Below are positions 3,125 through 54,310 of a DNA stretch of 64,000 nucleotides, one piece after another. The translations under genes were made by a program, and so were the position numbers. Position 1 is the first letter of the stretch. Each line of letters begins with the position of its first letter. The notes below the pieces were generated by a model. It saw nothing but the letters and a program-made list of their open reading frames with translations. It was not told the origin of the DNA and searched no databases. The DNA is taken from the IMG/VR virus record IMGVR_UViG_3300001533_000699. One strand, given 5' to 3'. The DNA is from a virus.

Positions 3125-4161
3125 GCATTAGTAAAGACATGATTAAGCAATACGGCGCTGATGCATTTATCAGTGGCGATAATTTAGAAAAACATACCAA
3201 CGACTTAGTTCATGTGAGTCCAGCCATCGACCTTATACTAGGTGGTGGTATTCCTGGTGGTTCTATTGTTAGTTTATTGGGCGACCCAAAGTGTGGTAAG
3301 ACACTCCTATCTTTACACATTGCTGGTAAGGGACAACAATTAGGTAGAGAGGTATACTACCTCAATATTGAGGGAAGACTAAAGCCCCGTGACATTAATG
3401 GCATAAAATGCCTAGACTCTTCAAAGATGCAAATTATTCGGTCTTATCGTAATGATAATGGAGAAAGCAAAATTCTCAAAGCAGATGAATTCCTATCTAT
3501 TGCCGAACAAATTGCGCACAGTCGCCCTGGCTCAATCATTATTGTTGATTCTATATCACAATTAGTAACTAGTGGAGAAATGACAAATGAACTATCCGTT
3601 AGAGACCGTGCCCCAGGAGCAACTCTCATGGCAAAGTTTTGTCGTCGTCTATCAAACGTAGTGCCAGTTAATGACATTATTCTAATAGGAATTCTGCACT
3701 TTATATCCAATACTAGCGGATATGGTAAGTCTAAGGTAGCAAGTGGCGGTAATAAAATCAAGTATGCTGTAGATATTGGATTGGAATGTCGCAAATTTAA
3801 TCTAGTCCGTGAGAATGGTGCTGAAGATGGTCGTGTTATCGGACAAGAAGTAGAGTGGATAACAACATCTACTGCATTTGCACCACCAGGACAAATAGGT
3901 AAATCTATGATAACGTTTGGTGTTGGCATTGATGAACTATATGAGATGGTAGGTTTATCTGTAGAGCTTGGTCTAATACAACAATCGGCGTCATGGTATA
4001 AAATGAACTATATGGAAGACCATGTAGATGCGTCTGATTGGGATATTAAAAAATATCAAGCACAAGGCAAACCCAAACTTATACAACGTCTACATGACAA
4101 TGAACAAGAACGCAACTTATTGATGCAAGACTTTAACAACCTTATAGGGAGCGTGGCGTGA
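3121..4161 (+). CDS. recA: RecA/UvsX-like recombinase
   Basis: IDLILGGGIP, Walker A GDPKCGKT, Walker B IIVDS, SGG-K motif, IQQSASWY. Confidence 0.9.
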   Translation: MSISKDMIKQYGADAFISGDNLEKHTNDLVHVSPAIDLILGGGIPGGSIVSLLGDPKCGKTLLSLHIAGKGQQLGREVYYLNIEGRLKPRDINGIKCLDSSKMQIIRSYRNDNGESKILKADEFLSIAEQIAHSRPGSIIIVDSISQLVTSGEMTNELSVRDRAPGATLMAKFCRRLSNVVPVNDIILIGILHFISNTSGYGKSKVASGGNKIKYAVDIGLECRKFNLVRENGAEDGRVIGQEVEWITTSTAFAPPGQIGKSMITFGVGIDELYEMVGLSVELGLIQQSASWYKMNYMEDHVDASDWDIKKYQAQGKPKLIQRLHDNEQERNLLMQDFNNLIGSVA

Positions 4162-30159: not shown

Positions 30160-31758
30160 TCAAACGTTGTACACAAATCGTTTTTTACCACAATCCCAAA
30201 TACGCGCATACCCATGCTGTAAACACCATTCTTTTTCAGTGATGTTACTAGGGCACCCAGTCTTAGACTTCATCATAGATTGCTTACTAATCCTTTGACG
30301 GGGTTGGCTAATCTTTACATAAGAATAGTCAGCCCCTATTTCTTTATCTAAAACAAATCCCATTTTGTGATACACAGTTCCAGATGACCATCTGTTATCA
30401 GACCACGTAGTAATTTTATGAATGCTGTTTTGCTTACACCATTGTATGGCATACTTCAATAGTTTGGACGCGCCACCAAGCACAGACACACCACGAACAA
30501 ACGCTAATCTATCCAATACTATATCTTCAGTCATCCTATGATGATTATTGAGAGACAGCACACCACATAATTCATCCTGGTAGTATAATCCAAAATATAC
30601 AAGAGCAGCTCTACGACATCCTTGTATATGGAATTGCTGTATAAAATTTTTACCAATACTTGAATCAATTATATCTACGTAGCACTTTCTACCATAAACA
30701 GACTTATTTTTGTGTAGGACTGCGTCTAAGTAACCTTGTACCTGCGGCTGACGTAATAACCACTCGTCTGAAAAAATAGTTATCAAGCGGATATCTTGTT
30801 CTAGACATTGTTTATATTTATCATAATGATAGTTTCTTAATCTTGGTTCTAGCGAAAGTTCATGATGCCAATGTAGTCCGCAGTATTCAATACCTAATCG
30901 TAAATCGTCATCATAGAAGTCTATTTCTTTACCATTTAGGATGGTTCGATTAGGTTGAAAAGAGTCTCCTAAAAATACGCCTAGACTATCCTGTTCAACA
31001 AAAGAAGACATATGATATGATTCAGCACCATACCTTTCCATACACGTTTGAATAGCTTTGTTTTTAATAGCTTGGTCTTGTAGTGTACATGAAACACCAT
31101 ATTTCTTTAAGCACGTTTCACGTATTCTGTTTTGTACTTTAGGTGATTTTGCAGCATATTCAAAACCATATCGTTGCAAATTTGTGTCCCTAATCTTTTG
31201 TTTAACTTCTTCTGATTGAGATGGGTGACTAGTGCCATATTTATTAATAGACGTAGCCTTTACTCTGGCTTTATGTTCGTCGGATTGTGTGTAAGACTCT
31301 ACTCCATACTTTTTCAAACAAGTCGCTCTACGTTTAGCAATGTTTTGGTTTATCTTAGGGCGTTGACCCCAATAACAGTTAGCAGGAGAACAGGGGGCGG
31401 TATTATCTCGTCTACGTAACACCAAGCCCTTACTCCATCCGTTTTGAATAGACCAATCATAAAAAGCTTGATAATCACTAGACCATTCTTTGGAAGCTAT
31501 CCTACGAGTCTTCATGGATTTCCAACTATTATAGACTGGGTGTTTAATTGGCGCAGTATACTTATCATTATACCTATGCATTCTTTGACTAGCGGCTTTG
31601 CGATTATAACACCCACAACTTTTAGTTCTGCCAGAAGTTACACTAGTTGTTCTTATGCTTTTGACAGTACCACAATCACATTTGCATGACACCTTACCAT
31701 TACATGGTAATTCTAATACAGTTAGGTAGTTAAACTTTTGTCCGATATGAATTTTCAT
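30160..31758 (-). CDS. Hef-like free-standing homing endonuclease
   Basis: CKCDCG..SCGC N-terminus, T-C-x-x-K-Y-G repeats, EIDFY..IEYCGLHWH nuclease motif, IWDCGK tail; ATG 31758 after GAGGAGG. Confidence 0.75.
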   Translation of the reverse strand: MKIHIGQKFNYLTVLELPCNGKVSCKCDCGTVKSIRTTSVTSGRTKSCGCYNRKAASQRMHRYNDKYTAPIKHPVYNSWKSMKTRRIASKEWSSDYQAFYDWSIQNGWSKGLVLRRRDNTAPCSPANCYWGQRPKINQNIAKRRATCLKKYGVESYTQSDEHKARVKATSINKYGTSHPSQSEEVKQKIRDTNLQRYGFEYAAKSPKVQNRIRETCLKKYGVSCTLQDQAIKNKAIQTCMERYGAESYHMSSFVEQDSLGVFLGDSFQPNRTILNGKEIDFYDDDLRLGIEYCGLHWHHELSLEPRLRNYHYDKYKQCLEQDIRLITIFSDEWLLRQPQVQGYLDAVLHKNKSVYGRKCYVDIIDSSIGKNFIQQFHIQGCRRAALVYFGLYYQDELCGVLSLNNHHRMTEDIVLDRLAFVRGVSVLGGASKLLKYAIQWCKQNSIHKITTWSDNRWSSGTVYHKMGFVLDKEIGADYSYVKISQPRQRISKQSMMKSKTGCPSNITEKEWCLQHGYARIWDCGKKRFVYNV

Positions 31759-31810
31759 AAAAAAAACCTCCTCATGTGATATATTATACACCACATGGGA
31801 GGTTTGTCAA
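31759..31810 (-). terminator. hairpin + U8 terminator overlapping a sigma70 promoter and the RBS of the endonuclease gene
   Basis: minus strand TTGACAAACCTCCCATGTG-GTGTATAATATAT-CACATGAGGAGGTTTTTTTT-ATG. Confidence 0.75.
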
Positions 31811-41982: not shown

Positions 41983-43086
41983 TTACCATCCAAAAACATA
42001 TAGTGCAGTTACGCCACTATCATAATCAATAGTATCAGGTATTGTCAATGTACAATTTGTAGATTCCACATATGCCCCAGATATATATAGAGATGCATAT
42101 GTATTAAGCAATGCATTGTTCTGTTGCATATACAACGGTATGCTATCTGATGCATCATATATTCCATTAATATATAGGTCTAGCTGTTCAGTGTCTAAAT
42201 ACATGCCTTTGATATACAGGTTGGCATAAGTATTTACTGAACCTATATTTGGATTCATTACTAATGTCAATATGTCAGAAGTATCACCAACAGAAAGAGT
42301 ATATAAAATAGATGAATTATCATCTGATATCATTCCATTGATATAACAACTAGCAAAAGTATTAGCAGGGAAGGTTGTGTGGGGAATCACTAAAGTCAAA
42401 GACTCGTTAATATCAACCGTACTTAGAGTATACAGCGATATAAAAGTATTTAATTCACTTTTTCCACCAACAAATAAAGTACTATGAATATCTACACCGT
42501 CTTGCTGCAAATACATAGGCATCGCTTGGCCGTACGGAACAAACCCACTCCAAAAACCAGGGGCCTTTACATATAGCGTTAAGCTCTCTGCTATTTGCTC
42601 ATTGAAAATAAGTAGGTCTAAATGACCGCTCAAACGATTCATGCGCCCGTTCATAAAAAGCGTGTGCACACCGCTAAACGGAGCGGATGTTTGCGTGTTC
42701 ATTAAAAACAGGGGCATCTCCTGCTCATATGATGGCGGTCCCATATACAGCGGTATGGATGACTGAACACCAAAAGTACCAGCGGTTCCAGTTTGCAAAA
42801 ATAATGTAGCATAAGTATTGACTGCATTCACATGACCATGTATATAAAGCAAACAACTATTATTATGTATGCCTATACCATCTACATACAGAGACATAGA
42901 CTCATTTATTGGTACTATTCCCTGCATATATAATGACATGAAAGAATTAAGTGCGCAGTGTGTTGCTATATACAAAGGTATGTCTTCAGAACTACCTGGA
43001 GACACCTGAATATACAAAGACATACTGTCATTGCATGAGTCTACACCAGATAGATATAGATTAAGTACATCGTTAATGTCTGCCAT
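41983..43086 (-). CDS. repeat-rich structural protein
   Basis: many ~14-aa [ML]-x-L-[YF]-[IM]-x-G units. Confidence 0.6.
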   Translation of the reverse strand: MADINDVLNLYLSGVDSCNDSMSLYIQVSPGSSEDIPLYIATHCALNSFMSLYMQGIVPINESMSLYVDGIGIHNNSCLLYIHGHVNAVNTYATLFLQTGTAGTFGVQSSIPLYMGPPSYEQEMPLFLMNTQTSAPFSGVHTLFMNGRMNRLSGHLDLLIFNEQIAESLTLYVKAPGFWSGFVPYGQAMPMYLQQDGVDIHSTLFVGGKSELNTFISLYTLSTVDINESLTLVIPHTTFPANTFASCYINGMISDDNSSILYTLSVGDTSDILTLVMNPNIGSVNTYANLYIKGMYLDTEQLDLYINGIYDASDSIPLYMQQNNALLNTYASLYISGAYVESTNCTLTIPDTIDYDSGVTALYVFGW

Positions 43087-43094
43087 GTGTTTTC

Positions 43095-46000
43095 CTATGC
43101 TATACCAAAACCAGTATCTCTAATTCTGTCACGTAAACGGTCAATCTCAGGACCAACAACTCCCATAACCATTTCACTAAATGCATCACCGCTTTGTGTC
43201 AAGGTTTCGCCACCTTCTACCACAACAGTCACAGGTTGGTGAGTATGTGTTACTGAAATACGCACTTCTTGAGCCAACGCGTCACGAATTTCTATGGCAG
43301 CACCACGCATTCTATCAGCAGCAACAGCAAATTCTGCCACAACCGTTGCAAGTTGAGTTGCACTTTGACCAAAGGAGGTTGCAGCGCTATTGAAATCACT
43401 CATTGCACCACTTAATGCGTTGGCAGACTCTATCATACCAGTGTTTGCAGTTCCGAAAGCGGCACTGATGTTTTCTGGCAAAGCTTCCGAACTAGCACTA
43501 AACTCTGACATGGTTTGTTGTAATGCGCCAACATTAGTAGCAAAATCAGATGAAAACTTGCTCAACATACTATTGACATCGGCAGTGTTCAGACTAAATT
43601 CAGTAGGCATACCACTAGTAGCAGTTTCCCATCGTGATATTGCATCATCTAAGGATGAAGTTAGGGCGTTTAAGTCAGCATCTAGTTTGATTTCTGTTGG
43701 GATAGTACTGATTGAATCTTCAAGTCTAGTAACCACACCATCAAAATTATCAGGAAAGGCTTCTAGTCGTTGTGCAGCATCGCTGAAGTCGTTTACGGTC
43801 TTCGTAAACTCTTGAGTAAAGTTCTTCATCGCGCTCTGAGCATCATCTGCCAGTAATAATGAGTATGAGCCACCCGCGCTTGTAGTATTGCTTTGGGCTA
43901 CTCCACCGTCTTGATATCCTTGTACAACGCCACCTTTAGCAAGAGCTTGTACAACTGACCGAGACAATACAAATTCACCACCTTGCAGTACTGCTGGTTG
44001 GTTACCAGAACCAGAAACAAGGCCACCGGAATGGAACGTTTTTGCGTCTTTAGGAAGAAGTTCTTCAGAACGCATAATTTTAAAAAGTTGCTCTTGTAAT
44101 GGCTTTAGGCTTGACGTATGACTACTAAAAATATTAGCCAGAATTTCTTTGGGTCTTAGTGAATGAGCTGTTGGCTTACCATCACCACCGCTCATACTCT
44201 TACTGTAAGCATCAAGAACAGCAGGATTATTCAAAAAACTTTGTATAGCTTGATTGTCAGATACATGCATTGCGTTGTCTATTCCATGACCAAGTTCATG
44301 GCCAACAAAACGTCGCATTCCATTTTCAAATTGTTTTCTTGTTATTTGCCCATTCACCCATTGTTGATGTTTTTTATGTAAGAAATCACCAAGTCCAATT
44401 TGTTTCTTAGCGTCCATCCATACAGCAGCAACTTTTTTTAAGTCATAGGCTTCCTGCGTACGTTTTAACTCTTCCGGCGGAATATTACCAACAGTCACGC
44501 CAAACACAAAGTCTTGCATATTTAAAGATTCGCCAATATGTTGTAGCTGAGCATTTGCTACATCAAATATGGAGTCTGGTGTATTCAATTTCTGTCCAAG
44601 GTTTTCTTTTTTGGTAACCCAAGGTACATGCTCAAACATCTTATTTGGTTGGTATGCCTTACGTTTACGTTGCTCTTCTTTTAATAATTCTTGTGAACGA
44701 ATCCAGTCATCAATATCGTTGATTTCTGTTTTCAACTTAGGATTACCATATTGTTTATACAATTCATCGTATGTTGGTAGACTATTAGGGTCGGCAACCT
44801 TTTGAGTATATGTATGCTTATATTTAGCATAACCCTCTCTACTACTATGGAAAGCACTACGCTTATTTCTATCATATGCATCCTGTAAAGCCGCTCTTCT
44901 GTTTAGTGCTTCTCGTACCACATCCTCTGAATAAATTTTTGGTTGTCCCATGGTGGCACGACCCTCTTCCATAACGCGTTGCACTTCATCATATGTTTGC
45001 GGACGACGCTCAGATACCATACGCCCCATTTCTTCTGCAAAATGAGCTTGTGCTGTATCTGAAATGTTGATTGGCTGAGTACTACGAGCGGTATTACCAA
45101 TGAGCGTCTCACCACCAATACTTCCCGGCGGTAAGATTTCTCTTGAAGAAGGAATAGGAAGTGGGCCAACAGGACTTAGTTGAGGACTCATATCTCCCTG
45201 ATTACGTTGCGGCATGCGAGTATCTTTACGTAAATCTTGTATACGTCCACGCATCACCGGAGCATGAATATCTGCTTCTCTATTCAGTTCGAATACATTA
45301 TGGGCATTACGTCTTATTCGTTCGGCGTATTTACTATTTAATGATAAATCATGCGCTTCTTTAGATAGCGTAGGCGATGTATGAGTACCAATATTGGTCG
45401 CAAGATTATGATGTAATTCTCTAGGTTGGCTACCTAACAATTCACGCTGTCTACGATTCAACTTTCCTTGAGTATGCGCAATCACAGCTTGTTGGTCATA
45501 TTCTTTACTCTTACGTTGCTCTTCTTTTAATAATTCTTGTTGATATTCTGCTTCTAATAAATCTCTAATAGTCTTTTGTGAAACTTCATGTCCTTGAGAT
45601 TTTAATTTATTAGATATAATACCTTGTGCCATATTCATAAAAGAAGCACTGGTGCCAACGCCAAGCTGGGCAGGTATATCTTTCCATACTTCAGTATCAT
45701 CGAAAAAATCTGGTTCATAACGTAAAATTAAATCACGCAAACCAGTAGCAGACTGTCTATTTTGTCTAGGTATATAATGTCCAAAATCCTGCACCATATT
45801 ATGCATATCAGTTTTTAATGCAATATTACGTTGCAACTGCTCCCAAGCTTTCGCTGCTTCTTCTGGAGTTGCATCTCTACTGATAACACCATTTTCTGCT
45901 AAGATATTCATTCGTTGCATTGTGCGCGTACGATTATCATACTCTGCTCTAAGTCTTTGGTCTGTACTACGACCAGCTAACATCTCTGCGTTTTGAGCCT

Positions 46001-49000
46001 CTCGTCTACGCATTTGATGCGCTTGTAAATCAGCCATAGACTCAAATTTTGGCGTATGTGTCTCAACCGGAGGTCTATCGAACCCTAGAGGTTGTCTAGT
46101 ACGCGCTGGCGGCTTAGCATTAGCATCATACGCACCAGTACCACGTGTTGTTGGTGTAGTAGCAGTAACCGGCTTCTTCGAGCCATAAAGTAAGGCTTCT
46201 CTTTGAGCATCAAAAGACTTTATGCGTGAACGCATAGCGTCAAATCTAGATTGAGCTTGTGCTACAGAATCACCACCAACAATGCGCATAAGATTATCTT
46301 TGCGCTTTGCTTCTAACGTTGCTGCGTTATATTGTCTGCGGTGCTCCAAGTTTCTAGTGTAGTCTTGTTCAAAATCTTGTTCTAATTCCGCTCGTTGTGT
46401 GTGAATTGTCTCCATGCGAGCTTGTGATTCTGCACGAAGTTGATGCAAAGGTTTTTGTGGTGTATAGCCACGGGAACGAAAACGCGCATCGGTACCGGGT
46501 GGATAACGAGGCGTACTGATTTGAATGTTTGGTTGTTCTGCTATTGGAGGCTGAGCAGGGAAGGCTTCAGGGGTGATAGTAGAAAATGCTGTTGGTGTAG
46601 TAGGCAACGCAGCTTTACCAGAACCCTGTTCATAAGGTTTACCATTTACATATATCTCACCAGGAGTACGACCACTTGGTATGTCGTTCAATGGAGTTGG
46701 TTTTCTGGTACGTAAACGTTGTCTAATGCGCTCTCTCTCAGCAAGTTCTTCATCTCGTTTATTAGCCCAATAGGCTTCCTTGCTTATTGGCTTTGATTGT
46801 GTAGAATCATTTGTAATAGCTCTATCAGCATATTCTCTACGTTGATTTTCGTCTGGAAATGCTATTGCCATCGCACGAGCGCGAGCACGGTCTCTTTGGG
46901 CTTGTTCTTCTTCTCTCTTCTTAGTCCAATACGCTCTTCTATCTACTACGCCACCTTGAGCAGCATACATCGGCGTATCACCACTATTTATAGCCCGTAA
47001 AAGCTCCATGTTCTTTTGCGCCGCGCTTCTCTTAACAACAAACTCACCAGGAGTAAGCATAGCTGGAACTGTATCTGTACCACGACTTCTAAAAATAGGA
47101 CCGCCAGTGGCATGAGCTTCAGCTTCGCCGCCTACAGCACCGAGTTTTGTAAGCTCAATGTTAATTTCCTCAAGTCTAGTTGTGAAATTAGCCAAGTTGC
47201 TATTTAGTCTCTCAAGTTTGACATTATCCAATTCTTTTAGTGAAGAAGATAGTCCTAAAATATCTTTGCTATTGTTTATCAAAAGCTCTCGAAAAACACC
47301 AAAATTATTTTTATCATCACCAATAGTACCGCTTTGCATCGCTGCTATGTCTGTGTTGGCAGCTTTTCGTAAAGCATCACTAATCATTGCAGAAATTTCT
47401 TGGAACGCTTCTCTTGGTGCGATATCTAGGCGCTCTCTTAGGTCTTTGGCATATTGGTTATCGAATACATATGCCCCTTTGTCGTCTTTTTGGTAAATAT
47501 CGTCCTGACCATGTCTCTCAGCTCTATATTTTTCGTCTTGAATAGCTTTATAATCATCTCCATATTTTTGTAGTTTTTCAGCTATAGCTAAACGAAGATT
47601 TTTGATAACATCATCGCTAAGTAATCCTTCTTTATCCATTTTACCAAGAAAATCTTGGTTAGTATCACCCATTTTAGTCTTCAACACAGTAGCAAAATCC
47701 ATTTCGGGCGATTCCTTGGCGCGTTGCCATGCCTCATATGCAGTACTCATAAATCGCTTAGGATTAATTCCAGTAGCTATAATGTCTTCTGGTGTAGCAC
47801 CCTCACGAGTAATACTATAGCGGCTTTGTAGCTGGTCAAATGATACAGCACGACTATATCTATTTTTCGCATTATCAATAACGTCACTCTTTTTTGATAC
47901 AATCAATGCTATGTCCATTGCTGCTTTATCACTAATATTTAGACCAACACTGTCAGCCATTTCTCGTATGGAAGCAACAGACTCTTTTTGTTTATTGATA
48001 TCGCCAATACGAGACTTCAACACAAACTGCTCTCGTTTAAGAGTATCTACCTCGGCTTTCGCAAAACTATCAACTAATACTTTAGTGAAGTTTGTAAATT
48101 CACTACCCATTAGAGTAATAAATCTAGTATGCTCATCTTTCATTAAAGCCAAATTAGCTAATTCAGCCTGATGTTTTTCGGCATGCAGTCTCTTTAGATT
48201 GTCAAGCAAAGGCTTTTGTTCATCTGTAATAGTGCCTGGGGCTATTTCGGCGGCTCTTTCACCAAGAGTGGCACCAAGAAATGGCCGCAGCATAGCTGGC
48301 ATATTAACGCCATTACTAAACTTTAACGCTTCGTTTGTATTGAATATATTACCAGTCAATCCTTGACCTTGCTCGTCTACACCAAACATAAGCGCACGGA
48401 TATTGCGAAAATCACCCATAGATAAAGACCCAAGTGCTTGGCGACGTTCATCTGGTAATTTTTGGATATCTATGCCTCCATATGACACCGCAAGCGCATC
48501 ATAGATACTTGTCAGTATCTTTTGTTGACCTTCGTCACTCTCAAACATATATCGTTCCAAAAGGCCAAACTGACCTTTCTTTTCTTCTTCCAGTCTGTTC
48601 AGAGTTTGGCGAATTTGTGTTGCTTCATCTGTGGTGTTGGCTAATACGCCTAGCGCCATTTGCAATTTTTGTGCTTCTGTATTCAGAGCACCAAGCTGTG
48701 TTGTAGTCTCAAATGATGCTTTACGATTGGAGTCGTCTACGACTTTCATAGTCTGTCGTTTTTGGCTAAGTTCATTAATTTCTTCATTGACTCTAGATAA
48801 TGCACCACCTATAAGTTCTACGTCAAACGGGTCTGCGCCCGCTACTCGTGTCCCTTGCAGAACATCGGATATTTGGTTGCCTCGTGCTGCACGTACGCGA
48901 CCTGCTCCAAATTCATCTGTTGGCCATTGCTTCGTCAGTTCAAATATCTCTTGTCTGTTGCTAAGCTCTTGTCTAGCTAAATCTAATTGTTTGCGAGTCA

Positions 49001-52000
49001 TATCGGTTTCTAAACTGATGCGTGTCTTCACAGCCTTATCTAAGGCTTGCATCGCGTCTGTTTGACTATTAGCAATACCATCCCACTGCTTAAAGATTGG
49101 CTCAAACTCTTTTAAGCCCAATTCACGCAATACACCTGCTTCGTCGGTGCGCATTTGATTAATAAGTTTACCAACCCCAGCTTCAGAACCTTGCTTACCT
49201 ATCATATCTGTAATGCCGCCCATGATAGTATGCATTACCATTTCTTGAGCGCGCGTAATTTGCATTTTACCTGTGTCGTCTTTTGTTCCTAAAAGATTCT
49301 CAAATTCATCTTGAAATTGTCCAGACAATTGTTCTGGTGATAACGCAGTAGCACCACCAGCAACGACATTTCTAATCACTTGAGGAAGTTTATCTATAGT
49401 TCTAGCAATATCAAGTGTACTATTTAACATGTAGTTATCTGATGTAGAGCCAAAACCGCCACCAACTTGTCTCAAAGCGTCTTCGAATTGTTTAATATCA
49501 AACACGCCACCTTCTGTTATGCTCGCAAAGTTGCCGAACCCAGGCATACCCTTAAATTCTGGCATCACCACATCTCCGCGAGCCAAACCGGCAATACCAT
49601 CTAAAGCGTCACCAGCACGCTGTAGTCTCTGTACGGTTTCAGTCATAGCCGCATTAAACTGATTCAAAGTAGTTATCAAGGAGACAGCGCGCTCTCTCGC
49701 GCGTGTTTCTTTTTCCATAGACGCTCTAGCTTTGTTTCGTTCAGTAATTTCCTTTTGGATTTCCTGACGTATAGCGTATGTGCTGCTAGTTTTTTGTGAA
49801 GCCATATATGTAATGATTTGAGCACCTGCGGAAGTACGATTCTCAAAGTCGTCCAAGCTAGCCGCACTACTTATTAGCTCATCTTTGACAACTTGAACTT
49901 GCGGTGCCATACCACGTAATTCACGAGTAATAGACAATGCTGCATCAGTGTCTTTATCCGCTTCTGCTTGAAACTGTGCTGCGCGTAATGATTCAAGTGA
50001 TTTGCCTAATGTTAGCAATTCTTTAGAACCACGCGCGTCTACATTACCAGCAGCCAGACGGTCTAATGCGTTTCTAATATCATCTGACGATTCTTGAACA
50101 CGGGATTCACGATTGATTTTGCGAAGCTCTTTGATTTCGGCTTCCATACTACCAAACATACCATATAAACCACCTAGAGCACCACCGATACCAGCACCAA
50201 CAGCAGCACCAACAGCATTACCAATTACTGGGAATATAGAACCAACAATAAAACCAATACCGCCACCAGCAGCAGCCCCCCAACCAGCGCTAGACAAACC
50301 TCGCCCTGTTCTACGCTTATCTATGGCGTCTTGCATCTGCGCACTTGTGCGAGCATCTTTAGCCATCTCATGAGACTCTTTGCGCGACTGTTCGCCAAGA
50401 TAAATAAGAATACCCGATAATGCAGCTATGGCTGATGCAGTACCTAAAGCAGCAAGATTCAATCCGGTTAAATTCTTAGATAATGCATCAACATGACCAT
50501 ATCTAGTCAGAGACTTGACACCCATACCCATAGGGGTCGCTACTTGACGAAATGCGTGTGGTGAACCCATAACACTCTTTGGGCTAAACATACCTCGTAA
50601 GTGTGTAGACGCAACGCCTGCTTGTGCACCTGTTTTAGCAAAATTAGATAATTGACTAGTCAATCCCTGTACAACACCAAGAGACATTCGCATAGCATTG
50701 AAAGTGATAATCATCGTTGTGGCGCTTTGAATCCATTTTTGAGCAGCACTATCAGCATCTACCATTGTACTAGCAAAATTACCCAACATCATCGTCATAA
50801 ACATTGCTTGTTGTGCAGCTTGTCCAGCGTTGCCACTTGAAGCAACCTCCTGACCAGCGTTCACTGGTATTGGTGAACGGGCATATTGTGTGTTTGGAGT
50901 AGCAGCAGACATTCTACCCCAATGAGCAGCAGAACCGCTCTGAACTGCATATTTATCAGCAATCGGTTTAGCAACACTATACGGCAATCCATGGGCAGCA
51001 ATAGGCGGCATATTAGGTGGCATGCGTAATCCATCAGGACGCACTATGTCGCCTTGAGCATATTTATTAATGCGACGAAGATTTTCAACACCAAAAGCAT
51101 CTACAGCGCTCTTTTGTATTACAAATTCACCGGATTCTAGTAACGCGGGAACAGTATCTCCACTACCAACACCAGGAACAACACCGCCTCTAGCATATCC
51201 TTGTATTTTACCACGCCCCTCCATAATCTTTGCTATACGAACCTGTTCAGCTTTGGCTTGGGGTGCTACATTCTCACCGCCGAAAATATCTTTAGATAAA
51301 AAGTCACGACGAAGTCTACGCAAATCAGGGGAACTTCCAGCCATCATTCTAGCGAAATATTCAGAATCTGGTTGGTCCGATAAAAACCGACCAGCTTGCA
51401 AACTCATGCTTTTATATATAGACTTTTTAATAAAATCCACTTTGTCGGCTGTACTAGGTAATGCGTCATAAAAACTGCGCGAACCAATACCAGCTATTAA
51501 TTCATTAGGATTAGAAGCGAATGTTTGTATTAAATCATTGTCAGATTTTCCTTGAATGTACGGCAACATCATACGACGAGCTAAATGTTTGGTCAAAGCA
51601 TCAAACAAACGTTGTTTATTTTTCGTAATCCATAGATGCCACATATCCCCGCTTCGGTCAGAAGCATATCCAAGATTACCTCCAGCTTGTGCATCTGCTC
51701 GATGCGATAATTCGTGAAATACCGTGTCTTTTAATTTAGCATTATTTTTTATTAATTGCAAGTTAAGTGCAATCTCACCGCGAGGCTGATTAAATCCGCG
51801 TCTTGATGTCATGAGTCTGCGCATATCGTGCACATTAGTATTTCTAAAATAACCATATGCGCTGGCTTCATCCATATAATCATCTTTGTCAAACTCACGA
51901 ATATGAGGTAATCTATCCATCTCCTGTTTAAGCCCAAATTTTTTCTTATATTGCTTGGCATACTTATACGCAAGACGAATACGTGGGTCTGGTACCATAC

Positions 52001-54293
52001 CGCCACGAGCAAACCCAAGCACATGTTGTAGGCTTGGGTCATACATCACATTCTCTGGGTCTCTAAAAGCGCTGTAGTCAGGTGGTCGAAACTCTCTAGG
52101 AGCAATAGTCTCGTGACCAAAGATGTTGTGTAGTCCGTATAGAGATGGTTTAATCGATTGATGTGGATAGCGACGGATATCATCCAACATCATTTGAATT
52201 CTATCTTTGTTGTACCGAATCTTATTCATTCCATGAATTTCAGTAAGTCTTTTCCAAAAACCATTCTTATCACCATGGGCCATACCCAAAGCACTTCTTG
52301 CTATATTTGATGGCGCAATAACAGTGGCAGACACACCAGGTTTTTTACCGGATAAGAGAGTACGTCCAAGCACAGAGGAACCCATACCACGACCAGATAC
52401 AGATGAACCAATAACTCTACCACCACTGCTCATCTGATTAATGTCGCGCAGATTATTATATCCAAAACTGCGAGCAGCATTCTTGTTAATCACGAATTCA
52501 CCGGGCGTTAACATTGCTGGAACAGTGTCTTGATTACCAGCTCCCGGTACTGAACCACCTGTTGCCATTTTTCTGGCAAATCCAGGCATCATAGTAATAG
52601 TCTTATTCAATAGCACGATACTAGAAGTAAGCTTAGACAACTCTACGTTGTTCAATCTCAACGCATCGGCATAAACCTTAGCTGTGGTTGTTTCTGTTTG
52701 TTGTGATACTGTATTTTTTTCAAGTGCTTGAGTATTTTGTTGTTGTACAGCAACCACTTGTTGTTGTAAGGCTTCAGATTCTTTTCTAGCTACTGGAAAT
52801 AGACCTTGAGAAAAACCACGGCCAAAACGACCAACCATTCTACCACCCTGAATCACACCCAATGCACCTAACAGCGGCATTAATGGCGATAGTTGACGAA
52901 CTACATCCGTAAGATTATCAGCAAATTTTAATGCGTATTCCGCTAGACTTTTGAACAGCTTACTGTCACCAATCTCACGAAATAGCTTTTTGTATTCTTC
53001 GGCAACCTGACCTATTTGTACAGCCAACGCACGTTGAGCAATCTCAGCATCTTCTGTAACAGATTCAGAACCAGCCAAAGAAGCAATCATAGCTTGTTGT
53101 GCTATGGTGAATTGTTGAATCAAAGGAATGGCCTTAGATACTTGACGGAAACCACCCAACTCTTCTATAATACGAGAGAATCGAATATCTCTAGGGTCTA
53201 AGTCTTTCAAAGCCATATGTAGTTTACGTACAGCATTATAAGGTCCAACAAAGTGGCCCTCTGTGTTTTGAAGCTCAATACCAAATTCTTTTAAGAACTG
53301 AATAGTACGCGGTCTTTGCATACGAGTGAAAATAGTACGGAAACCAGTAGCAATAGAATCGGCGCTTTCACGTGTAGTAGCACGTACAGATGTGAATAGA
53401 GCAATAAGTTCATTAAGGTCACCACCAGCAGCCTTGAACGCACCACCAGTACGTCGTATAGCCGAGATGATATCAGAGCTTTCTACAGCAAAACTACTAG
53501 CGACTGCGTTGATTGAACCTAGTGCTGACTCTATATCTTTACCCTGGATTTTGAACTGGCGCATAGCAGCAATAACGCCTTCTGTGGTCTGCTTCATGTT
53601 TTCGAATGTTGGCGACAAGTCAGACTTAGCAATCGCAGACATAGCTGCCTGAGTGTCTTTGGCGGCAAGACCAGCCTGAGATAAAATTCTCGTAACTTCA
53701 GCCAATTCATTAGATGACACACCATACGCAGTACTCATATCTCCGATAGCGTCTGTCAAACTACGAAGACCAGATACTGTTTTTCCTGTAACCTGTTGTA
53801 CACGAACAATTTCACGCTCAAAATCTATAGCCGCTTTGATGCCTTGACGAATCTGTACCACCATACCAATCATTATACCGGCAGTAAGACTAAAACCAAC
53901 GAAACGCCGTAAAGCCAAAGCAGATATACGTCCAAATTCACCAATCTCAGTTGCAGCTAATTCCGATGCGTTTGCTGTGGCAAGCATGTTTCTAGATGTC
54001 TGTTGAGTAGATTGAGCAACTTTATTAATTTTTTGTTGCGCGCCAGAAACGCTAGTCTTTACAGCGGCTAAAGCCGTAGAGGCAGCATTCGCGCTAGCTG
54101 TAATATCTTTAAGATGTACGTTTGTACTAGACAAAGACTTATTGAAATTAGTCAATGCGGTATTAGTCCCAGACGGAATGTTCAATGCAACATTCACACT
54201 CACACTTTGTAGCTGAGACTGAATGCGATTAACTATCTGTCTAACATTAGCTGGACCTTGGAGCTTCAAACGCGCCACTAAATTAAAAGCCAT
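43095..54293 (-). CDS. tape measure protein with inserted cargo domains (two HExxH zincins)
   Basis: TP901-type core (FRTIFTRM), Ala/Gln helical runs, Gly-zipper TM segment, repeated DTVPAxLxxGEFV modules; ATG 54293 after GAGG. Confidence 0.9.
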   Translation of the reverse strand: MAFNLVARLKLQGPANVRQIVNRIQSQLQSVSVNVALNIPSGTNTALTNFNKSLSSTNVHLKDITASANAASTALAAVKTSVSGAQQKINKVAQSTQQTSRNMLATANASELAATEIGEFGRISALALRRFVGFSLTAGIMIGMVVQIRQGIKAAIDFEREIVRVQQVTGKTVSGLRSLTDAIGDMSTAYGVSSNELAEVTRILSQAGLAAKDTQAAMSAIAKSDLSPTFENMKQTTEGVIAAMRQFKIQGKDIESALGSINAVASSFAVESSDIISAIRRTGGAFKAAGGDLNELIALFTSVRATTRESADSIATGFRTIFTRMQRPRTIQFLKEFGIELQNTEGHFVGPYNAVRKLHMALKDLDPRDIRFSRIIEELGGFRQVSKAIPLIQQFTIAQQAMIASLAGSESVTEDAEIAQRALAVQIGQVAEEYKKLFREIGDSKLFKSLAEYALKFADNLTDVVRQLSPLMPLLGALGVIQGGRMVGRFGRGFSQGLFPVARKESEALQQQVVAVQQQNTQALEKNTVSQQTETTTAKVYADALRLNNVELSKLTSSIVLLNKTITMMPGFARKMATGGSVPGAGNQDTVPAMLTPGEFVINKNAARSFGYNNLRDINQMSSGGRVIGSSVSGRGMGSSVLGRTLLSGKKPGVSATVIAPSNIARSALGMAHGDKNGFWKRLTEIHGMNKIRYNKDRIQMMLDDIRRYPHQSIKPSLYGLHNIFGHETIAPREFRPPDYSAFRDPENVMYDPSLQHVLGFARGGMVPDPRIRLAYKYAKQYKKKFGLKQEMDRLPHIREFDKDDYMDEASAYGYFRNTNVHDMRRLMTSRRGFNQPRGEIALNLQLIKNNAKLKDTVFHELSHRADAQAGGNLGYASDRSGDMWHLWITKNKQRLFDALTKHLARRMMLPYIQGKSDNDLIQTFASNPNELIAGIGSRSFYDALPSTADKVDFIKKSIYKSMSLQAGRFLSDQPDSEYFARMMAGSSPDLRRLRRDFLSKDIFGGENVAPQAKAEQVRIAKIMEGRGKIQGYARGGVVPGVGSGDTVPALLESGEFVIQKSAVDAFGVENLRRINKYAQGDIVRPDGLRMPPNMPPIAAHGLPYSVAKPIADKYAVQSGSAAHWGRMSAATPNTQYARSPIPVNAGQEVASSGNAGQAAQQAMFMTMMLGNFASTMVDADSAAQKWIQSATTMIITFNAMRMSLGVVQGLTSQLSNFAKTGAQAGVASTHLRGMFSPKSVMGSPHAFRQVATPMGMGVKSLTRYGHVDALSKNLTGLNLAALGTASAIAALSGILIYLGEQSRKESHEMAKDARTSAQMQDAIDKRRTGRGLSSAGWGAAAGGGIGFIVGSIFPVIGNAVGAAVGAGIGGALGGLYGMFGSMEAEIKELRKINRESRVQESSDDIRNALDRLAAGNVDARGSKELLTLGKSLESLRAAQFQAEADKDTDAALSITRELRGMAPQVQVVKDELISSAASLDDFENRTSAGAQIITYMASQKTSSTYAIRQEIQKEITERNKARASMEKETRARERAVSLITTLNQFNAAMTETVQRLQRAGDALDGIAGLARGDVVMPEFKGMPGFGNFASITEGGVFDIKQFEDALRQVGGGFGSTSDNYMLNSTLDIARTIDKLPQVIRNVVAGGATALSPEQLSGQFQDEFENLLGTKDDTGKMQITRAQEMVMHTIMGGITDMIGKQGSEAGVGKLINQMRTDEAGVLRELGLKEFEPIFKQWDGIANSQTDAMQALDKAVKTRISLETDMTRKQLDLARQELSNRQEIFELTKQWPTDEFGAGRVRAARGNQISDVLQGTRVAGADPFDVELIGGALSRVNEEINELSQKRQTMKVVDDSNRKASFETTTQLGALNTEAQKLQMALGVLANTTDEATQIRQTLNRLEEEKKGQFGLLERYMFESDEGQQKILTSIYDALAVSYGGIDIQKLPDERRQALGSLSMGDFRNIRALMFGVDEQGQGLTGNIFNTNEALKFSNGVNMPAMLRPFLGATLGERAAEIAPGTITDEQKPLLDNLKRLHAEKHQAELANLALMKDEHTRFITLMGSEFTNFTKVLVDSFAKAEVDTLKREQFVLKSRIGDINKQKESVASIREMADSVGLNISDKAAMDIALIVSKKSDVIDNAKNRYSRAVSFDQLQSRYSITREGATPEDIIATGINPKRFMSTAYEAWQRAKESPEMDFATVLKTKMGDTNQDFLGKMDKEGLLSDDVIKNLRLAIAEKLQKYGDDYKAIQDEKYRAERHGQDDIYQKDDKGAYVFDNQYAKDLRERLDIAPREAFQEISAMISDALRKAANTDIAAMQSGTIGDDKNNFGVFRELLINNSKDILGLSSSLKELDNVKLERLNSNLANFTTRLEEINIELTKLGAVGGEAEAHATGGPIFRSRGTDTVPAMLTPGEFVVKRSAAQKNMELLRAINSGDTPMYAAQGGVVDRRAYWTKKREEEQAQRDRARARAMAIAFPDENQRREYADRAITNDSTQSKPISKEAYWANKRDEELAERERIRQRLRTRKPTPLNDIPSGRTPGEIYVNGKPYEQGSGKAALPTTPTAFSTITPEAFPAQPPIAEQPNIQISTPRYPPGTDARFRSRGYTPQKPLHQLRAESQARMETIHTQRAELEQDFEQDYTRNLEHRRQYNAATLEAKRKDNLMRIVGGDSVAQAQSRFDAMRSRIKSFDAQREALLYGSKKPVTATTPTTRGTGAYDANAKPPARTRQPLGFDRPPVETHTPKFESMADLQAHQMRRREAQNAEMLAGRSTDQRLRAEYDNRTRTMQRMNILAENGVISRDATPEEAAKAWEQLQRNIALKTDMHNMVQDFGHYIPRQNRQSATGLRDLILRYEPDFFDDTEVWKDIPAQLGVGTSASFMNMAQGIISNKLKSQGHEVSQKTIRDLLEAEYQQELLKEEQRKSKEYDQQAVIAHTQGKLNRRQRELLGSQPRELHHNLATNIGTHTSPTLSKEAHDLSLNSKYAERIRRNAHNVFELNREADIHAPVMRGRIQDLRKDTRMPQRNQGDMSPQLSPVGPLPIPSSREILPPGSIGGETLIGNTARSTQPINISDTAQAHFAEEMGRMVSERRPQTYDEVQRVMEEGRATMGQPKIYSEDVVREALNRRAALQDAYDRNKRSAFHSSREGYAKYKHTYTQKVADPNSLPTYDELYKQYGNPKLKTEINDIDDWIRSQELLKEEQRKRKAYQPNKMFEHVPWVTKKENLGQKLNTPDSIFDVANAQLQHIGESLNMQDFVFGVTVGNIPPEELKRTQEAYDLKKVAAVWMDAKKQIGLGDFLHKKHQQWVNGQITRKQFENGMRRFVGHELGHGIDNAMHVSDNQAIQSFLNNPAVLDAYSKSMSGGDGKPTAHSLRPKEILANIFSSHTSSLKPLQEQLFKIMRSEELLPKDAKTFHSGGLVSGSGNQPAVLQGGEFVLSRSVVQALAKGGVVQGYQDGGVAQSNTTSAGGSYSLLLADDAQSAMKNFTQEFTKTVNDFSDAAQRLEAFPDNFDGVVTRLEDSISTIPTEIKLDADLNALTSSLDDAISRWETATSGMPTEFSLNTADVNSMLSKFSSDFATNVGALQQTMSEFSASSEALPENISAAFGTANTGMIESANALSGAMSDFNSAATSFGQSATQLATVVAEFAVAADRMRGAAIEIRDALAQEVRISVTHTHQPVTVVVEGGETLTQSGDAFSEMVMGVVGPEIDRLRDRIRDTGFGIA
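44665..45540. repeat. 30-bp exact direct repeat (44665-44694 and 45511-45540)
   Basis: TTACGTTGCTCTTCTTTTAATAATTCTTGT twice, 846 bp apart, in frame (QELLKEEQRK). Confidence 0.9.
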
Positions 54294-54310
54294 GTCATAC
54301 CTCATATATA

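Follow-up and report, generated by a model that had tools for sequence, protein, structure and literature searches.

A repeated joint element very probably delimits exchangeable inserts in phage tape measure proteins

Tape measure proteins (TMPs) are ejected into the host, which is the basis on which we assume that domains inserted in them are delivered there. TMP-embedded enzymes, cleavage of TMPs during maturation, a TMP-fused RNA polymerase and injected polyvalent proteins have all been published. Here, we describe a TMP encoded by a 64,000-nt stretch of virus record IMGVR_UViG_3300001533_000699 (hereafter, the window) in which a ~55-aa element, termed the joint (or module), recurs and brackets inserts that differ between close relatives. 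The original prediction, made from the sequence alone, ranked this protein as a candidate for an undescribed system. In view of the published precedents that wording is too strong, and what is new is the repeated joint itself together with the exchange of inserts at it. Neither was found in model libraries or the searchable literature, and among ~8.4 million papers the core motif strings turned up in no phage paper.

The TMP of phage lambda, gpH, matures to gpH* and gpHC, as described in PMC12617516, which cites Tsui and Hendrix 1983; the protein loses ~14 kDa from its glycine-rich C-terminal region, and neither the site nor the protease has been identified according to that source. Like the window TMP, gpH carries the joint (F-A-T-G-G ... 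G-E-F-V ... helix ... Y-A-T-G-G-Y-V at residues 733-784), which lies ~70 aa before the hub-bound C-terminus and beside a glycine-rich membrane-type stretch. However, lambda has a single copy and no inserts, whereas the window TMP has four copies and a half-copy, with ~1,370 aa of inserts. The T5 TMP, pb2, is cut after R1127 during tail assembly to give pb2* and a zinc-peptidase fragment, pb2C, that is kept in the tail and released at infection (PMC10038345). In contrast to the window TMP, T5 has one cut and one cargo, pb2 has no match to the module profile, and it is upstream of a joint, not downstream, that the zincin-like parts of the window TMP lie.

Other large carriers resemble the window TMP in their contents. 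TM4 gp17 has a cell-wall hydrolase motif (motif 3; 114 aa, including W853) inside its ruler, downstream of its one module (aa 703-766); this is its only insert, deletion of which shortens the tail, and neither a bracketing joint nor cassette exchange is described in that study (PMC1796659). The giant 5,002-aa TMP of P23-45, gp96, brings a virion RNA polymerase into the host and has metallopeptidase and membrane domains, but its enzyme is N-terminal and is proposed to be active while still fused (PMC10770324), and it has neither the module nor the short GG motif. Polyvalent proteins are large, travel with the DNA and combine exchangeable effector domains in one chain (Iyer et al. 2017, PMC5512222); their commonest domain is a zincin-like HExxH-plus-Glu peptidase, often interspersed and predicted to process the chain. 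That paper contains no occurrence of "tape measure" (0) and describes no conserved joint, and most members of the window TMP family have joints but no zincin. Finally, Sle1-type effectors of actinobacterial contractile injection systems (PMC13277306) have a TMP-related carrier with an exchangeable functional domain, although these belong to an injection apparatus of the cell, not to a phage tail, and their variable domain is C-terminal.

The window protein is a TMP, as originally predicted, and of the TP901 type: its core scores above the cut-offs for PF10145 (95.1 bits, cut-off 33.2) and TIGR01760 (aa 146-482; 111.1 bits, cut-off 28.8), and several PHROG tape-measure families also match. All ten short motifs listed in the original prediction were found at the expected residues. 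Its four modules and lone motif, converted from nucleotides, fall exactly at aa 580-631, 765-771, 1037-1088, 2398-2454 and 3424-3469, and the segments between motifs that it had put at ~135, ~270 and ~970 aa measure 133, 265 and 969 aa. A hidden Markov model (HMM) built from the four modules, M1 to M4, recovers exactly those four (independent E-values, i-E, in Table 1). The strict motif [FYWHM]-x-x-G-G-x-[VIAL] occurs seven times in the TMP against an expectation of 0.29, with a maximum of four in 2,000 shuffled sequences. The joint comprises, in order, aromatic-x-x-G-G-x-V, a near-invariant D-T-V-P-A-x-L-x-x-G-E-F-V, an amphipathic helix ending in L-x-x-x-N and a second G-G-x-V. M4, which sits 265 aa upstream of the C-terminus, is degenerate and has NQPAVLQGGEFV in place of the DTVPAxLxxGEFV of the other modules. 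An AlphaFold2 (AF2) model of the module has an overall pLDDT of 65, with a core at 72-85 that contains a single helix and low-confidence, floppy GG flanks; we used this model solely to distinguish the confident core from the flanks, a pattern that fits a linear, partner-dependent element. Complex prediction with three module copies gave no support and was not used either way.

To define how the joints relate to the inserts, we compared the window TMP (P0001 in pairwise comparisons) with its closest relative, P0002, a 3,581-aa TMP from an independent sample whose neighbouring structural genes are 67-90% identical to those of the window. Identity is 60-97% up to aa 764, drops to 10-27% directly after the lone FARGGMV and recovers gradually, starting ~45 aa before YARGGVV of M2; M2 itself is 82% identical, the insert just before it only ~20%. 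The two proteins are 100% identical over aa 2400-2439 of M3, homology stops right after the AAQGGVV that closes M3, and it is back at FHSGGLV of M4. The inserts of the two TMPs are 10-27% identical or unalignable. In another pair, P0005 and P0006, identity exceeds 90% to the trailing GG of joint 1, falls to 10-32%, returns to 92% once the leading GG of joint 2 is reached and is high again from the last joint on. Furthermore, three aligned pairs whose flanks are 94-98% identical have unrelated inserts between modules 1 and 2, and homology breaks at Y-x-x-G-G and F/M-A-x-G-G. Unrelated inserts that replace one another are of similar length.

A survey of 99 TMPs corroborated these comparisons. 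Among pairs with a core identity of at least 90%, inserts were homologous in 25 of 43 and the stretch after joint 2 in all 43; at 80-90% core identity, inserts were homologous in 19 of 103 pairs and the stretch after joint 2 in 80. Because such pairs are not independent, we also counted by cluster and found two to five unrelated insert families in 4 of 13 core clusters defined at 90% identity or more, and in 5 of 16 at 80% or more. The 99 TMPs hold 19 insert families. Together, these data indicate that the joints very probably delimit exchangeable inserts.

The modules are 79-87% identical in protein sequence, and 47-59% of the codons for identical residues differ, the same as in the flanks. 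Because synonymous divergence in the modules equals that of the flanks, their conservation reflects selection on the protein. Judged by this divergence, insert exchange in the lineage of the window is not a recent DNA event, and recent DNA exchange at the modules is unsupported. The original prediction had the motifs as recombination junctions of swappable segments, with cargo that varies between fixed boundaries in aligned relatives. That holds for most junctions in both P0001/P0002 and P0005/P0006 and for the pairs with 94-98% identical flanks; some changes of homology fall off-motif, however, and the synonymous divergence speaks against a recombination signal at the DNA level. A region of ~300 aa before M3 (aa 2097-2394; 47124-48017, minus strand) is 20-30% identical to P0002 and collinear with it, with no motif at its upstream edge, and is a fast-evolving part of the ruler rather than a swapped cassette. 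Insert 2 is itself mosaic, with an island (aa 2579-2767) shared with P0002 whose edges have no motif. In P0008 (3,441 aa), two tandem zincin-like units (HELTH and HELGH) lie at aa 724-1146, each closed by a lone F-x-x-G-G-x-V half-joint, so a half-motif by itself is able to mark a border.

Neither Pfam nor NCBIfam has a model for the module. We searched a 37-copy module profile against 177,635 PDB sequences, and the matches were TMPs only: gp16 of mycobacteriophage Douge (two modules, E 2.5e-14), lambda gpH (residues 733-784 of 853; E 2.3e-3 in this set and 7.8e-8 when searched alone), the JBD30 TMP (aa 1019-1069 of 1158) and, weakly, the T1 TMP. A Nitrincola phage TMP has one module (aa 1334-1392 of 1472), and Wildcat gp38 has two. 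The positions in lambda, the Nitrincola phage and JBD30 agree with the original statement that the module commonly occurs once near TMP C-termini. In PDB tail structures of TMPs that carry it, the module is not resolved and only the last 30-40 residues, in the hub, are visible. Conservation extends from lambda to actinophages and cyanomyophages. In Synechococcus phage S-SM2 (L003:4005-6305, plus strand), a "transmembrane protein" at the gp29 position has one module (i-E 9e-22); because gp29 is the tape measure position of T4-like cyanomyophages, the element extends beyond non-contractile tails.

When the module profile was run against 5.8 billion proteins, at least 4,474 clusters matched at E <=1e-5, a lower bound drawn from 8,000 candidates, and almost all module-bearing clusters also have PF10145. 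Three modules were present in 107 of the 120 best matches. For 77 of 85 first modules, 79 of 85 second modules and 76 of 85 last modules, the closest module of another protein occupies the same position, and the "last" modules form a subtype of their own (76/85). Consistent with this, median module identity is 0.60 for the same position across proteins versus 0.47 within one protein. Modules therefore group by position and not by protein, and a plan with three joints is ancestral. Compared with this plan, the window TMP is enlarged: it adds M3 as a further internal joint, another large insert and the lone half-joint. In one metagenomic phage (L017:1140-10162, plus strand), the TMP is encoded as two adjacent same-strand genes, P0061 and P0071, of 1,570 and 1,375 aa and 183 nt apart, with three modules in each; the arrangement may reflect a genuine split, a frameshift or an excised element. 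Because the break does not fall at a module, it is uninformative about processing.

We then considered what the inserts are. In the window, candidate cargo comprises two zincin-like segments plus uncharacterised segments. Insert 1 and six related TMP inserts, only 17-32% identical to one another, align with an invariant HExxH. A candidate third zinc ligand, a Glu on a later helix, lies in S-E-Y-F-A of P0001, which aligns with S-E-L-F-A-E of P0002, although this column is not conserved across the seven sequences. Pfam matches of insert 1 to SprT-like (19.2 bits, cut-off 25.6), YgjP-like and M90 families are all sub-threshold. The second zincin-like segment (HELGH at aa 3336-3340, 44286-44300) is absent from P0002; in the ESM Atlas, the nearest clusters to aa 3100-3423 are "metalloprotease" at 0.95, which we treat as a lead only, and aa 2458-3189 of insert 2 have no usable match. 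Phmmer with insert 1 gave 0 matches among 1.84 billion representative proteins, a word-indexed search found no stand-alone homologues of insert 2b (aa 3170-3423), and the zincin alignment, used as a profile against the PDB, gave just non-significant, HExxH-level matches (E 0.5-2). AF2 on insert 1 with a seven-row alignment reached a pLDDT of 48, and the model was unusable. Segment A has no Pfam match.

In relatives, the same slots hold Pfam-significant domains, including an SLT transglycosylase and a glucosaminidase with its start 2 aa past a joint. Inserts in relatives can, on this domain evidence, be real enzymes. In P0019, a TMP of 1,619 aa, a toxin-type ADP-ribosyltransferase exoenzyme domain (PF03496, E 8e-20) occupies aa 1015-1164, between the second and third modules. 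The first insert of P0004 (6,532 aa) contains a J-domain-like stretch with H-P-D at aa ~877-909 (Pfam DnaJ, E 0.03, below cut-off); if real, this would be cargo acting on host DnaK in the cytoplasm. Any HExxH is present in only 6 of 21 family members, while joints are present in all 21. This distribution marks the zincin as cargo and not as a general joint-acting enzyme, and it rules out cutting of the joints by a zincin in cis as a general mechanism. Whether the inserts act as delivered effectors we regard as evenly balanced.

The explanation that we favour, by a little, combines an ancestral joint plan, exchangeable inserts, cutting at the joints and release in the host. The plan runs from an N-terminal core through joint 1, a variable insert, joint 2, two membrane-type helices, a helical ruler and a terminal joint to a C-terminal hub plug. 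The joints would be flexible, partner-dependent linear elements that allow the ruler to accept foreign domains while tail assembly proceeds undisturbed. By analogy with lambda gpH and T5 pb2, they would also be the places where the chain is cut, either during tail maturation or after ejection. Cutting would set the inserts free in the host envelope or cytoplasm before the DNA arrives; in the window TMP, these are two zincin-type metallopeptidase-like domains. The suggestion that the joints are cut is tentative, and we hold it at somewhat less than even. It draws on lambda, where a loss of ~14 kDa corresponds to cleavage around residues 710-725, or ~10-25 aa before the module begins at 733, and on T5, where the cut sequence P-R/A-E-G-G-M-M-Y-P-G (slash, cut) resembles the joint start A-x-G-G-x-V-P-G. 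That the joints could be sorting signals, as the original prediction also allowed, is only an analogy.

Several observations weigh against this explanation. The module HMM has no significant match in T5 pb2, and the residue before the T5 cut is Arg, at a position that is aromatic in the joints. For lambda, the cut site was estimated from gels only, and cleavage of the window TMP, or of any other TMP with several joints, is predicted by analogy. With 55 aa and invariant L, G, E and V, the element far exceeds the requirements of a protease site. P23-45 gp96, the one giant enzyme-bearing TMP that has been studied, is proposed to work uncut (PMC10770324), and scanning it revealed no module and no short GG motif. 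In TM4, tails become shorter when the embedded hydrolase motif is deleted, as though it belonged to the ruler (PMC1796659), which suggests that inserts are not simply extra baggage. Both zincin assignments in the window are below curated thresholds, and insert 1, the only one folded, folds poorly. Homology also changes away from the motifs, at aa 2097-2394, at the edges of the shared island (2579 and 2767) and in the gradual recovery before M2. Self-cleavage at the conserved D-T is unlikely because the T is S, N or G in some copies and lambda lacks it.

The strongest alternative is that the joints are never cut and serve as structural staples or docking strands, to the tube lumen, assembly chaperones or neighbouring TMP chains, that keep a multi-chain ruler in register, with the whole chain ejected and working as one. 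The length and conservation of the module, well beyond those of a cleavage site, speak for it, as do the extended stretch and helix in need of a partner that AF2 suggests, the proposed activity of P23-45 gp96 while fused to the TMP, the contribution of the TM4 insert to tail length and the fact that the module region is unresolved rather than absent in every solved tail. In contrast, the lambda cut adjoins the module, and the T5 enzyme is freed by a cut just before an A-x-G-G motif. We consider uncut staples unlikely, though they are the rival to be taken most seriously.

It is improbable, and clearly more so than uncut staples, that the inserts are mainly length filler, that is, a fast-evolving part of the ruler that tunes tail length, with the zincin-like motifs as relics that have no role in infection. 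This would suit the basic, Pro/Arg/Glu-rich insert 2a (aa 2458-3100), which has no recognisable family or Atlas lead, and the failure to find homologues for insert 1 or stand-alone homologues for insert 2b. It would also suit the TM4 tail, whose length tracks that of the insert, and the ~800-nm tail of P23-45, which scales with all 5,002 residues. However, filler does not account for an HExxH that is invariant across seven inserts only 17-32% identical, nor for the ADP-ribosyltransferase, SLT and glucosaminidase domains, all Pfam-significant, that occupy these slots in relatives, and length tuning alone needs no replacement of one insert by an unrelated insert of similar length. There is very little chance that the modules matter only as DNA homology arms for recombination of TMP genes, with no protein function: breakpoints of replaced inserts do lie at the modules, but module synonymous sites are as diverged as the flanks (47-59%) while the protein is 79-87% identical, and up to 100% over aa 2400-2439, and conservation of the module reaches from lambda to actinophages and cyanomyophages.

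A bolder extension of the favoured explanation makes the joint a maturation or release signal common to all long-tailed phages, with every copy cut by a protease of the phage or the host or through a self-reaction that a partner assists. We regard this as unlikely. If it were true, thousands of TP901-type TMPs would be polyproteins that lay exchangeable effectors (peptidases, ADP-ribosyltransferases and wall hydrolases) into the host ahead of the DNA, and the 40-year-old gpH-to-gpH* cleavage of lambda would be explained as well.

The features of the window TMP are collected in Table 1. Its gene has an annotated ATG at 54305, which is probably not the start (54293-54305, minus strand); the true start is probably Met5 at 54293, giving a TMP of 3,732 aa, because P0002 begins at the aligned residue and a GAGG lies 7 nt upstream of that ATG. 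A hydropathy scan found hydrophobic segments at aa 132-153 and in the two membrane-type helices. The C-terminal region (aa 3472-3736) may be the part that plugs the tail-tip hub, by analogy with the C-termini of other TMPs, which sit in the hub. At 0.15 nm per residue, the predicted tail length is ~560 nm for the whole 3,732 aa and ~355 nm when the ~1,370 aa of inserts are subtracted.

Table 1 Features of the TMP gene in the window, from the N-terminus of the product to its C-terminus.
Feature	Coordinates	Strand	Details
TMP gene	43095..54305	(-)	One open reading frame (ORF), 3,736 codons/aa; from ORF list and translation
PF10145 (PhageMin_Tail / TP901) core	53190..53753	(-)	aa 185-372; 85-97% identity to P0002
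Joint M1	52407..52577	(-)	aa 577-633; MATGGSV ... DTVPAMLTPGEFV ... MSSGGRV; i-E 3e-30
Segment A	52014..52406	(-)	aa 634-764; 60-70% identity to P0002
Lone half-joint FARGGMV	51993..52013	(-)	aa 765-771; P0002 homology collapses right after
Insert 1, zincin-like	51198..51992	(-)	aa 772-1036; HELSH at aa 864-868 (51702-51716), downstream S-E-Y-F-A
Joint M2	51033..51197	(-)	aa 1037-1091; YARGGVV ... DTVPALLESGEFV ... YAQGDIV; i-E 1e-29
Two hydrophobic glycine-zipper membrane-type segments	50181..50462	(-)	aa 1282-1304 and 1343-1375; hydropathy and weak Gly-zipper Pfam matches
Long acidic helical "ruler"	47124..50045	(-)	aa 1421-2394; 974 aa, proline-poor
Joint M3	46935..47123	(-)	aa 2395-2457; HATGGPI ... 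DTVPAMLTPGEFV ... AAQGGVV; i-E 2e-35
Insert 2	44046..46934	(-)	aa 2458-3420; basic Pro/Arg/Glu-rich part, then zincin-like part at ~aa 3190-3420
Joint M4	43893..44045	(-)	aa 3421-3471; FHSGGLV ... GGEFV ... LAKGGVV, YQDGGVA; i-E 4e-21
Acidic C-terminal region	43098..43892	(-)	aa 3472-3736; last ~130 aa 79% identical to P0002

The IMG/VR record is a virus fragment with a completeness estimate of 55%, and its source is an uncultured, large and probably long-tailed phage. Megablast of the TMP gene against 50,697 phage records gave no DNA-level match, and tblastn gave nothing beyond the modules. The flanking genes have the same orientation as the TMP gene and are conserved in the genome that encodes P0002. 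Ten neighbouring genes searched against PHROG and Pfam had no family match except for an HNH endonuclease (30160-31794, minus strand), the only one of the ten with any match; a lambda gpK-like JAB/NlpC peptidase, a candidate GG-specific protease, was not found among them. The gene directly 3' of the TMP gene (41983-43086, minus strand) encodes 367 aa, and its counterpart in the P0002 genome encodes 242 aa at 32-38% identity, while other neighbours are 67-90% identical to their counterparts there. The 242-aa protein aligns twice to the 367-aa protein, at overlapping positions, a pattern suggestive of an internal duplication or insertion in this distal tail gene.

These findings define an uncatalogued and very widespread protein element and provide a sequence landmark both for the unmapped cleavage of lambda gpH and for the part of the TMP that is not resolved in published tail structures. 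The joints would be natural insertion points for engineered cargo in the phage tails of laboratory phage-host systems. In many uncultured phages, the ruler has fixed slots whose inserts, including toxin-type ADP-ribosyltransferases and wall hydrolases, are swapped between close relatives, and the tail lumen would be a delivery route for early-acting proteins alongside the polyvalent proteins packaged in the head.

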